Positions 32,974 to 37,678 of a stretch of 51,676 nucleotides of DNA are shown here, piece by piece (the first letter of the stretch is position 1; each line of letters begins with the position of its first letter). Both the position numbers and the translations under genes were made by a program. Below the pieces are notes generated by a model, which saw only the letters and a list, made by a program, of their open reading frames with translations, was not told the DNA's origin and ran no database searches. Source of the stretch: a phage; the sequence record PZ534514.1; one strand, 5' to 3'.

Positions 32974-33195
32974 TCAATTAAAATGAATTTGCTTGTATTC
33001 GATTTCATCTGCCAGATCATTTAACTTATCCGCCAGCTTGCGCACCTGGTCAATGGTGAGTATCGACCTAAAATCCGGCCTGCGCCCACCTTCAAACGTG
33101 ACATCAATAAACACACGGTCGCCGAACTTGTATACCTCAAGCGCATCGCCATGATTATCAATAAACTTGTGTTTAACGCGCTTATTTGTCTCCAT
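32974..33195 (-). CDS. Hypothetical protein
   Basis: 73-aa ORF. Confidence 0.5.
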   Translation of the reverse strand: METNKRVKHKFIDNHGDALEVYKFGDRVFIDVTFEGGRRPDFRSILTIDQVRKLADKLNDLADEIEYKQIHFN

Positions 33196-33412
33196 CCTTC
33201 ACCTCCTCAAATTCAGCAATCACCATAGCGTACGCCATAACCTTAGTGCCTTCGCCACCGTTCAGGAACATGCGATGCCCCTTACTATTGCTCACGTAAA
33301 AAGATCCGGTTGATGATTTCAGTTTTTGCGCCGTATAGATTTCGCCAGGCTTGAACATTCCAGCACAACCATAATTAACGGAAACGCATTTCATCTTCTT
33401 GCTAATGTACAT
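33182..33412 (-). CDS. Hypothetical protein
   Basis: ATG at 33412 with RBS aaggag; 76 aa. Confidence 0.55.
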   Translation of the reverse strand: MYISKKMKCVSVNYGCAGMFKPGEIYTAQKLKSSTGSFYVSNSKGHRMFLNGGEGTKVMAYAMVIAEFEEVKDGDK

Positions 33413-33442
33413 CGTTTTATCTCCTTCGTTGAAAGTGAGGCC

Positions 33443-33486
33443 ATTATACCTGGCCCCACATTTGAGTTTTAACAATTCGTGCTATT
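33443..33486 (-). promoter_or_regulatory. Promoter-like element, conserved motif family
   Basis: Minus strand AAATAGCACGAATTGTTAAAAC, 21-22 bp, TATAAT. Confidence 0.55.
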
Positions 33487-34367
33487 TACACTTTGACTTT
33501 CCACTTAACCATAGTTCCGCGCTTGATGCTGATCTCTCCTGCAACAGTCCGGTTTTTCGCACTGCCATAATGAAGCAGAAGAATAACAACGTCATCATGA
33601 ATCTCGATCGTCTTTGGCTTTGCCGTTAATTCATACCATGCGCCATCATCAAGCTGGACTCCTTTTAGCGTGGCTGCAACTGGCATATCTTCAATAGCGC
33701 TCTGACTTACGAGATCTTGCGCAACAAGACCGGACGCCTTGATTGTTTGACTGTGAATCTGCTCGCCAATACGTCGCGCAGCGTTGTCTATTGCCTGCGC
33801 AAAATATGATTTACCTCCGCCAATTGGCGCATCTCCAAACAAGTGTTTTGTAATGTCTTCCACGTAGTACACCTTATCTTCTTCATTGTGCGGATTGAAT
33901 TTGTTATGAGCGTTGACAAAGAAATCAACCTTAAGCTCTGATTTCTGACCGTCGCTATAGACGCCGTTTTCTGGTGACGTATAGCGAATCGTTGAGTTAC
34001 CAACCGTGCGGAACACGATCGGATACTTGATGTTATCCACGCTTAAGCACCACAGCTTTTTGTAGTCGCAGGTTTTCATATTGACCATCGGAATTTCTGC
34101 GCGTTCCGGCGAGCGCACTGGTAACACCTGGCCTTTATATGGCTTGTAGTGCAAGCATGTGTAGCCTGGCATTGCGTAACTGTAGTCTCTGAGTGAGTTG
34201 TAGTGTTTATTGTGCGCTTCAATGAAGTGTTCAATCTCCATTGTTGAAGCGTTTGGACTTCCGTATTCGTTAAACTTAGTGCATGTCTTCTCGTCGGAAA
34301 ACATGAAGTGACCAACGCCGCGAGATTCGAAGGTGATCGGGAATTTAATGTTAGCAAGTTTTAACAT
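33486..34367 (-). CDS. Hypothetical protein with internal tandem duplication (293 aa)
   Basis: Two repeats: IKFPITFESRG...FIEAHNKHYNSL and IKYPIVFRTVG...FVNAHNKFNPH; RBS aggag. Confidence 0.65.
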   Translation of the reverse strand: MLKLANIKFPITFESRGVGHFMFSDEKTCTKFNEYGSPNASTMEIEHFIEAHNKHYNSLRDYSYAMPGYTCLHYKPYKGQVLPVRSPERAEIPMVNMKTCDYKKLWCLSVDNIKYPIVFRTVGNSTIRYTSPENGVYSDGQKSELKVDFFVNAHNKFNPHNEEDKVYYVEDITKHLFGDAPIGGGKSYFAQAIDNAARRIGEQIHSQTIKASGLVAQDLVSQSAIEDMPVAATLKGVQLDDGAWYELTAKPKTIEIHDDVVILLLHYGSAKNRTVAGEISIKRGTMVKWKVKV

Positions 34368-34421
34368 AGTGCTTTCTCCTGATTGGTTTAACTGGGCGAC
34401 GCCGTGCCGCCCTATGTGTGT

Positions 34422-34468
34422 ATTATGCCTAGTTATCGTTTTTGAGTTTTAACAAAAAGTGCTATTTA
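34422..34468 (-). promoter_or_regulatory. Promoter-like element, conserved motif family
   Basis: Minus strand AAATAGCACTTTTTGTTAAAAC, 22 bp, CATAAT, then hairpin gggcggcacggcgtcgccc. Confidence 0.55.
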
Positions 34469-34852: not shown

Positions 34853-34884
34853 TTTGTTTTCCTCAATCTCGTTTCGATGAGGCT

Positions 34885-34930
34885 ATTATGCCAGGATTTG
34901 CACCTGGCGTTTTAACAAAAAGTGCTATTT
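34885..34930 (-). promoter_or_regulatory. Promoter-like element, conserved motif family
   Basis: Minus strand AAATAGCACTTTTTGTTAAAAC, hairpin gccagg/cctggc in spacer, CATAAT. Confidence 0.55.
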
Positions 34931-35185
34931 AATATCTGTTGTGACTTGTTGGTGCATTACGTTTTTGCCGCTCCGGTATGTGCTATCCGTTGCGCCATTA
35001 CAATTGGTGTAATAGATTGCTCGACCGTTGTCATAGAATCGGTACGCGGTGCATCCATCAACAGTAAACAGGCGACCGACTTTAAAATCTGACTCCACGC
35101 CTACGACTACCGTTGATTCAGATGCCTTTTCGCATCCGGTCAGGGTAGCAATTGCAATCAAAACTCCAATTAATGCCTTATTCAT
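34925..35185 (-). CDS. Small lipoprotein (second lipoprotein gene)
   Basis: Signal peptide with lipobox LTGC; 86 aa; second gene of the leftward early operon. Confidence 0.7.
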   Translation of the reverse strand: MNKALIGVLIAIATLTGCEKASESTVVVGVESDFKVGRLFTVDGCTAYRFYDNGRAIYYTNCNGATDSTYRSGKNVMHQQVTTDIK

Positions 35186-36308: not shown

Positions 36309-36354
36309 AAATAGCACTTTTTGTTAAAACTGAATTGTCCTGATCGGGTACATT
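36309..36354 (+). promoter_or_regulatory. Promoter-like element, conserved motif family
   Basis: aaatagcactttttgttaaaac, 22 bp, tacatt, leader acatcgaaacga, RBS aggag, ATG at 36393. Confidence 0.55.
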
Positions 36355-36392
36355 AGACACATCGAAACGAGATACCCATCAGGAGAAAGCAA

Positions 36393-36665
36393 ATGAACAT
36401 CAGCAAAACCACTTTCAATTTCGCCAAGCGTCATGGTCTGGACCTGACTGTTGAGAATTTCGGCGATGTTCTGCAACTCTGCATTTGGGAAGCGGACAAC
36501 GATTGCGAGTGGCTTTGCTCTTATCGTATCAACTACGATTGCTTAACCTGGCATGGCAATGTTTACCTGCCGCAAGAAGTGAAAGAGGAATTGCCAGCGA
36601 CCATCAACAACGAAGTGTTTTTGCGCAAAGTCCTGAAGTTTATTGCCGAGGAGATCAATAAATGA
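36393..36665 (+). CDS. Hypothetical early protein
   Basis: 90-aa ORF. Confidence 0.6.
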   Translation: MNISKTTFNFAKRHGLDLTVENFGDVLQLCIWEADNDCEWLCSYRINYDCLTWHGNVYLPQEVKEELPATINNEVFLRKVLKFIAEEINK

Positions 36666-37448: not shown

Positions 37449-37492
37449 ATAGCACTTTTTGTTAAAACTCAATCCTCGCAATCCGATATATT
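37447..37492 (+). promoter_or_regulatory. Promoter-like element, conserved motif family
   Basis: aaatagcactttttgttaaaac, 22 bp, tatatt; palindrome cctcgca/tgcgagg spans the -10; leader catcgacaacgaa. Confidence 0.55.
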
Positions 37493-37525
37493 ACACACAT
37501 CGACAACGAATGCGAGGATTTGAAA

Positions 37526-37678
37526 ATGGTTACTCTGATTACCTGGGAGCACGAAAACAGCCAGCCGGAAGTGCGCGAATTTGAAACTGTAGCGGCCTGC
37601 TACAACCTTGCGAAAAATGGCGGATTCTATAAGGCGCAAATTGTTAACGAATTTGGAGTTGTTGACTATGAGTTCTAA
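37526..37678 (+). CDS. Small hypothetical protein (50 aa)
   Basis: ATG at 37526 after RBS gagga; overlaps the next start by 11 nt; under the ORF-track size cutoff. Confidence 0.45.
   Translation: MVTLITWEHENSQPEVREFETVAACYNLAKNGGFYKAQIVNEFGVVDYEF

Follow-up and report, generated by a model that had tools for sequence, protein, structure and literature searches.

Predicted modular architecture of an uncharacterised 293-residue protein from the presumptive early arm of a T1-like phage

The phage sequence PZ534514.1 (51,676 nt, the whole of which we call the window) encodes, on its minus strand, a 293-amino-acid (aa) protein that is predicted to be made of three independently folding modules on flexible linkers: two anciently diverged alpha/beta domains of ~70 aa (hereafter N-domains), followed by an SH3-like beta-barrel of ~73 aa (the C-domain). 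Comparison with homologs shows that these modules are freely shuffled among T1-like phages, in combinations that carry from zero to three N-domains, and we tentatively read the protein as a modular binding protein rather than an enzyme. Taxonomically, the window is a Hanrivervirus-like member of the Drexlerviridae: the region matched 160 phage records, every one of them T1-like (Megablast), the large terminase (TerL) showed 99% identity to its counterpart in Shigella phage pSf-1, and the best annotated match was Escherichia phage JakobBernoulli (Bas07; Drexlerviridae, Tempevirinae, Hanrivervirus). With 51.7 kb, it roughly equals related complete genomes in length and is probably a near-complete genome itself.

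The first part of this anatomy, an internal duplication, was approached in three ways. Residues 2–54 aligned with residues 108–156 at 28% identity over 53 aligned aa (BLASTP of aa 1–104 against aa 105–293, E 1e-6); the Smith-Waterman repeat score of 70 compared with 27.3 +/- 4.7 in 2000 shuffles, of which the maximum was 55; and an N-domain profile, seeded mostly with the first 72 aa of 14 homologs that carry a single copy, plus both window repeats, matched the protein twice over its full length, at aa 1–72 (E 1.2e-22) and at aa 107–177 (E 3e-29). Since all three agree, we take the duplication to be real. The initial annotation had proposed two tandem copies of a ~100-aa unit, and self-alignment thus bore out the repeat while the size of the unit had to be revised: although the repeat recurs every 106 aa, homology is confined to a domain of ~70 aa, and the 34 aa that follow copy 1 are missing behind copy 2.

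Evolutionarily, the two copies belong to different types, R1 (copy 1) and R2 (copy 2), which were split by a neighbour-joining tree and by a shared three-residue deletion in R1 relative to R2. The R1 type also includes the domains of homologs P0123, P0150, P0163, and P0168, and the R2 type the inserted copy of P0100, so that the two copies are best viewed as old paralogs and not as the outcome of a recent duplication in place. Copy 2 is the N-domain that the window protein has in common with the single-repeat homologs T1 ORF70 and TLS gp06, and tblastn alignments to T1 and other phages accordingly span aa 108–292. Within the N-domain family, Pro10 alone is invariant, Ile11 and Phe13 are nearly so, and the HN and NPxN motifs are substituted in some members. 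In no other part of the protein is constraint as strong as in the tail that follows copy 1 (DYSYAMPGYTCLHYKPYKGQVLPVR; aa 60–106, window 34050–34190, minus strand), which has an entropy near zero and is rich in Tyr and Pro; residues 73–85 are nearly invariant, and the tail may act as a docking peptide or contribute to a domain interface. A zinc site formed by C71, H73, C100, and C107 was considered and rejected, as the segment with C100 and C107 is missing from P0122 and some homologs have Ser in place of C71.

Structurally, a first AlphaFold2 (AF2) run on 24 close homologs gave an unusable model (predicted local distance difference test, pLDDT, 42.5), and an alignment of 49 diverse family members was used instead, for which the mean pLDDT rose to 78.3, with a predicted template modelling (pTM) score of 0.46. 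The confident blocks of this model cover aa 1–85, 107–178, and 220–293, and are separated by low-confidence linkers at aa 86–105, 181–186, and 203–216; given the pTM score, the positions of the domains relative to one another are not fixed. Each N-domain was modelled as a short beta-meander followed by a helix, and the C-terminal block as all-beta. The prediction thereby agrees with the distinct C-terminal domain of the initial annotation, though not with the GGGKS motif that had been placed inside it: GGGKS (aa 183–187, nt 33807–33821) lies in the linker directly after copy 2, at pLDDT <50 and outside the C-domain. Among close homologs, this second linker comes in two alternative cassettes.

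Searches of the AF2 model against the PDB with Foldseek returned no match below an E-value of 0.25, and the weak top matches were Tudor-knot/chromo, NdhS, Sso7d, and Cren7 barrels. Because the C-terminal block is the only all-beta module of the protein, we infer that these weak barrel matches fall there, and the C-domain is hence described as an SH3-like small barrel. No match to the fold of the N-domain was obtained from the PDB in this search, which was run with the whole-protein model, and a Foldseek search of BFVD returned uncharacterised Drexlerviridae proteins only. The C-domain family has one invariant Glu, one invariant Pro, and a few near-invariant residues, its HDD and KRG motifs being variable, and neither domain type seems, from these conservation patterns, to retain a plausible set of catalytic residues.

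A word-indexed search found 340 homologs of the protein, with a conserved start in common; the 120 matches listed were 59–95% identical, and all named ones among them were called ‘hypothetical’. An exhaustive hidden Markov model (HMM) search of 1.84 billion representatives of clusters at 50% identity found just 48 relatives at E <= 1e-3, so that the family is a narrow one, and all of these with an assignable source came from T1-like phages. The N-domain alignment profile retrieved only seven short proteins from a set of 5.8 billion. The family corresponds to PHROG 7116, a group without assigned function that comprises one N-domain, the linker, and the C-domain: positions 1–173 of its 173-position HMM aligned to aa 107–292 (E 1.4e-74), with a second stretch on copy 1. 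The ortholog in JakobBernoulli is bas07_0071 (QXV80746, ‘hypothetical protein’; 92.8% identical over 99% of the length), and T1 ORF70 (CPTT1_008, AAP49930; 161 aa; annotated ‘hypothetical’) and TLS gp06 (AAR09236; 188 aa; still ‘hypothetical’ in its record following the 2024 re-annotation) are true homologs with one N-domain each, from which the window protein differs by its extra R1-type N-domain and the conserved tail. ORF70, gp06, and bas07_0071 share their place in the left arm, near the genes for polynucleotide kinase and deoxynucleoside monophosphate (dNMP) kinase, which are a few genes away in T1 and TLS. As all members of PHROG 7116 are without assigned function, this kinship explains nothing about mechanism.

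Beyond this family, the searches matched no characterised protein. Pfam, NCBIfam, and PADLOC gave no matches for the window protein, the 49 family members, or the fusion partners described below (PADLOC: 0 families at E <= 1 for the window protein), and sequence and profile searches of the PDB with the full protein and with the N-domain and C-domain profiles gave nothing below E 0.4; there is thus no clear homology to a known enzyme in any of these resources. In the literature, neither the accession, the locus tag, nor the PHROG number led to any mention of the protein, and searches on early genes and anti-defence in Drexlerviridae turned up nothing on this protein family. One described analogue of the C-domain is DUF7244, the lysis-module SH3 domain of KanT1 and T1, which is likewise a small SH3-type barrel of ~70–80 aa when it stands alone and an accessory (‘shell’) gene of Drexlerviridae. 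DUF7244 was found only beside the holin/endolysin cassette, where it was detected by InterPro (PMC13164509), whereas the C-domain is encoded in the left arm, in the neighbourhood of the two kinase genes, and mostly occurs in fusion with N-domains. Membership was rejected, as neither the window protein nor the 49 family members had a Pfam match and the gene does not lie between exonuclease and holin genes.

Modularity is shown by the combinations in which the two domain types occur. One N-domain is present in 25 single-repeat proteins of the scanned set, T1-type proteins included; two are present in the window type and, as directly adjacent pairs, in P0140, P0141, P0146, and P0148 from other lineages; and three are present in P0100. 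The C-domain also stands alone in proteins of 74–81 aa from other Drexlerviridae: NBD2 gp04 has 79 aa, and Klebsiella members of this phage family encode versions of 74 aa. Further, N-domains are fused to unrelated C-termini in P0157, P0163, and P0168, and C-domains to unrelated N-termini in P0134, P0156, P0158, and P0164, with all partner modules belonging to PHROGs without assigned function. A suspected MazG-like identity of the P0163 C-terminus was dropped, as neither the PDB nor Pfam supported it and it matched only such PHROGs. In T1, the gene directly upstream of ORF70, ORF71 (L002 2344–2832; PHROG 9595, without assigned function), has an internal duplication of its own, in which K[IV][KR]LLSNGGY occurs twice, and P0134 joins the first half of an ORF71-type protein to an ORF70-type C-domain, a natural fusion from which it follows that deletion and fusion between neighbouring early genes occurs in nature.

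From a selection perspective, the ratio of nonsynonymous to synonymous substitution rates (dN/dS) was 0.21 overall among eight intact orthologs, which confirms a functional coding frame. Constraint was tightest at aa 60–85 (0.07–0.09) and aa 145–174 (0.05–0.08), and loosest, at 0.43–0.57, at aa 21–49 (strands b2–b4 of copy 1) and aa 205–224, patches that coincide with entropy peaks among 119 close homologs; in copy 1, aa 21–40 make up a hypervariable patch. The gene is distributed patchily: the family was found in 227 phage records, compared with 1018 records matched by TerL, ~708 of them at >= 60% identity, and a six-frame HMM scan of Rtp found no N- or C-domain at E <= 0.01. Moreover, the ortholog is disrupted in three sequenced isolates, by an in-frame stop in copy 1 in haarsle (L009), by a frameshift in copy 2 in tonnikala (L004 1009–1901), where the C-domain re-starts at MKAPGGW as a 93-aa open reading frame (ORF), and by frameshifts together with a DNA-level tandem duplication in 2019SD1 (L014). 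These disruptions could be true inactivations or sequencing or assembly errors. Taken as a whole, the gene is accessory, and probably dispensable for growth on laboratory hosts.

At the DNA level, the gene sits among recurrent intergenic signals (Table 1). The short motif TTGTTAAAACTC occurs 7 times in the window against 0.37 expected, and the longer ATAGCACnnnTTGnTAAAA 18 times against 0.23; elsewhere, the latter repeat has 19 copies in Rtp and 15 in a Klebsiella Webervirus. In TLS, this same direct repeat, given as aaATAGCACnnnTTGnTAAAA, was reported in 18 intergenic copies, each ~76 nt before a start codon, with its role left open and with the suggestion that such repeats are possibly stoperator-like or enhancer-binding sites (PMC11447400). 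Three window copies (6508, 17329, and 21089) are on the plus strand where the long ORFs are on the minus strand, a placement at odds with the stated agreement between repeat orientation and transcription. Since copies stand at both ends of the 293-aa gene, the gene can be described as a repeat-bracketed cassette. T1 ORF70 and TLS gp06 are likewise preceded by the same repeat and a −10-like hexamer, and the leader hairpin between hexamer and gene, identical in all two-repeat phages examined, is absent upstream of both. A generic sigma-70 scan gave 5 promoter-like sites against 6.8 in shuffled sequence and did not report the CATAAT site, and the same signal scan found no intrinsic terminators. 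Thus, of the motif promoter and strong ribosome-binding site (RBS) proposed in the initial annotation, the repeat motif, the −10-like hexamer, and the strong RBS are present, and a promoter role of the upstream repeat region is plausible, though unproven. Several repeat copies also have an inverted repeat, either between the direct repeat and the −10-like hexamer or across leader and RBS, at 45740–45800, 34860–34920, 36320–36400, and 37460–37540 (the 45786 site has CCCGAC..GTCGGG and the 34907 site CCAGG..CCTGG, and long-range pairs occur at 36321 and 37459); these may be combined terminator/promoter or translational control elements.

Regarding gene boundaries and surroundings, the ATG at 34365–34367 (minus strand) has AGGAGA (34375–34380) 7 nt on its 5' side, and the N-terminus MLKL..IKFPITF is kept across the family in the alignment of homologs, which favours the annotated start of the 293-aa ORF. 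The gene lies among short genes without assigned function, with polynucleotide kinase and dNMP kinase genes nearby on the same strand and in the same arm. The products of the corresponding TLS region have been termed presumptive early gene products (PMC11447400), and the early status of the window gene is presumptive as well, being given by position only. The product of an 86-aa ORF at 34925–35185 (minus strand), a member of PHROG 6360 without assigned function, has a signal of the lipoprotein type (LIAIATLTGC) and may be a membrane or periplasmic early protein.

Table 1 Coordinates of the 293-aa gene, its predicted modules, and nearby or recurrent signals in the window
Feature	Position	Strand	Evidence or remark
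Coding sequence, 293 aa + TAA stop	33486..34367	-	complete; bas07_0071 ortholog; PHROG 7116 member
N-domain copy 1 (aa 1-72), R1 type HNxHY...DYxYxMP	34152..34367	-	profile E 1.2e-22; pLDDT 75-94
Copy-1 tail and inter-repeat linker (aa 73-106)	34050..34151	-	conservation, pLDDT, entropy, dN/dS
N-domain copy 2 (aa 107-177), R2 type YFVxxHNxxNPxN..YY	33837..34049	-	profile E 3e-29; PHROG 7116 alignment from aa 107
Linker 2 (aa 178-220)	33708..33836	-	GGGKS, predicted helix aa 188-208, variable low-confidence aa 203-216
C-domain (aa 221-293), SH3-like beta-barrel predicted	33489..33707	-	motifs IEDMP, RIEVHDD, NIKRGT
Shine-Dalgarno AGGAGA	34375..34380	-	kept in orthologous loci
GC-rich 7-bp hairpin GGGCGGCACGGCGUCGCCC, presumed 5' leader	34394..34412	-	-14 kcal/mol, z -2.05
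-10-like hexamer CATAAT	34422..34427	-	aligned position TATAAT in T1, TATAGT in TLS
Intergenic direct repeat of Drexlerviridae, upstream copy, ATAGCACTTTTTGTTAAAA(CTC)	34444..34465	-	79 nt before ATG
Next direct-repeat copy	33464..33485	-	directly after stop codon; precedes next gene (33182-33475)
Repeat sites	6508, 17329, 21089, 29604, 30949, 33467, 34447, 34910, 36311		
Repeat sites, continued	37449, 37946, 38598, 39996, 40672, 45789, 46809, 49333, 49822		

Functionally, the explanation we favour, and hold tentatively as somewhat short of probable, is that of a non-enzymatic modular binding protein, in which the SH3-like barrel is an autonomous core and the N-domains are exchangeable add-ons, and which serves a host-specific task early in infection. 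The C-terminal barrel, which also exists alone, would be the core functional or anchoring module and would bind a conserved partner, either protein or nucleic acid, while the N-domains, present in zero to three copies and with a variable beta-hairpin surface, would be added as recognition or regulatory modules. The task itself would be accessory, in the form of host takeover, counter-defence, or competition with other phages. The initial annotation had noted that large unassigned early proteins are frequently anti-defence or host-takeover factors; this idea is compatible with the accessory distribution, shuffling, and local variability found here, with which many other accessory functions fit equally well, and is neither supported nor excluded. 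Several points weigh against the explanation favoured here. Several conserved acidic and polar residues of the C-domain, three Glu and, in the majority of members, HDD, could constitute an active or metal-binding site that has gone unrecognised; no dN/dS window exceeded 1, the variable patches included, so that diversifying or positive selection is not demonstrated, and recombination between cassettes may explain the local variability; and the disrupted alleles could mean that the gene is nearly neutral under laboratory propagation.

A more specific proposal, which we consider unlikely as it stands, is that the N-domain represents an undescribed fold deployed by T1-like phages as a recognition array of variable copy number (0–3), with a diversifying beta-hairpin, on the conserved SH3-like barrel, the array acting as a modular decoy or inhibitor whose N-domain repertoire sets the host immunity or takeover target. 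Anti-restriction proteins of the Ocr/ArdA type are likewise phage-encoded and of comparable size, and Ocr is made early in infection; the window gene, for its part, has its own expression signals. These proteins are strongly acidic, however, whereas the window protein, with a pI of 8.17, a net charge of +2.4 at pH 7, and module charges between −2 and +3.8, is mildly basic, which argues that it is no DNA mimic of this type, and neither sequence nor fold searches matched it to one.

About equally unlikely, in our view, is an RNA- or ribosome-directed factor, whose ‘translation protein SH3-like’ C-domain would bind rRNA, tRNA, or mRNA and which might even work with the neighbouring polynucleotide kinase in RNA repair or translational takeover. 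The fold neighbours of the C-domain suggest this reading, domain I of EF-P/EfpL, the N-domain of eIF5A, the C-domain of uL2, and the N-domain of Pelota all resembling it at the level of fold, but this likeness is common to many unrelated SH3-like barrels, and SH3b, FeoA, Tudor/chromo, and Sso7d barrels score almost equally. Nor is there any sequence similarity to the translation barrels, the KOW and EF-P families included, and neither a KOW motif nor an EF-P lysine loop was identified in the C-domain. The isolated C-domain is also near neutral (charge +0.6), and the linkage to the kinase gene is loose, the intervening genes varying between phages.

Could the gene instead be a decaying or selfish cassette, of no benefit to the phage and kept only by recombination between its flanking repeats? 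The frameshifted and nonsense alleles of the three isolates, the patchy distribution, the mosaic junctions (P0134 and the two linker cassettes), and the bracketing by conserved 19–22-nt repeats, which could promote cassette exchange, all fit such a reading, but we regard it as improbable to a marked degree. The dN/dS of 0.21, falling to 0.05 locally, speaks against it, as does the alignment of >100 phage records over >= 80% of the two-repeat query (a count in which internal stops were unscreened); further, the domain has been kept since the divergence of Tunavirinae and Tempevirinae (T1 and TLS), and sequencing errors may account for some of the disruptions.

Less likely again is that the protein regulates phage transcription by binding the intergenic direct repeats. 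These number 18 in the window and have no known binding factor, two of them bracket the gene, and the weak Foldseek matches include the DNA-binding SH3-like barrels Sso7d and Cren7. Against this, Rtp carries 19 repeats without a detectable N- or C-domain, most Drexlerviridae records lack the family, the gene is disrupted in viable isolates, and searches of Pfam and other families detected no helix-turn-helix or other DNA-binding family. The least credible reading, already largely refuted, is that of a P-loop nucleoside triphosphatase (NTPase) or kinase, in which GGGKS would serve as the Walker A motif for nucleotide hydrolysis or transfer by the C-terminal part: APIGGGKS formally matches [AG]x4GK[ST], is followed by the predicted helix of aa 188–208, and has its GGGK invariant inside the two-repeat subfamily, but many homologs at 75–85% identity have TPFGGGKT, which breaks the pattern, T1 ORF70 and TLS gp06 are entirely without the motif, the motif is modelled as coil between a short and a long helix with no preceding beta-strand, the linker and 73-aa beta-barrel downstream cannot accommodate a Walker B motif or alpha/beta core, no P-loop family appeared among Pfam or NCBIfam matches, and no alpha/beta NTPase fold was predicted.

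In a broader context, the family was already catalogued as PHROG 7116 and is uncharacterised, a typical phage ORFan (“dark matter”); as it stands, the result is a well-described orphan and no discovery. What has become clearer is the domain anatomy, in which one of the larger orphans is resolved into two domain families, neither of them in Pfam, that are shuffled as cassettes between conserved intergenic repeats. T1-like phages are both common laboratory contaminants and candidates for phage therapy, and their presumptive early arm is almost wholly unannotated; the module boundaries given here provide clean constructs, both for single domains and for deleting the gene from Bas07, a BASEL phage that is publicly available. 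Should the protein turn out to be a host-specific inhibitor, the variable hairpin of copy 1 would be the obvious determinant of its specificity, and if the N-domains do form a recognition array that acts as a decoy, such an arrangement would amount to an anti-defence architecture that is new and peculiar to the Drexlerviridae.

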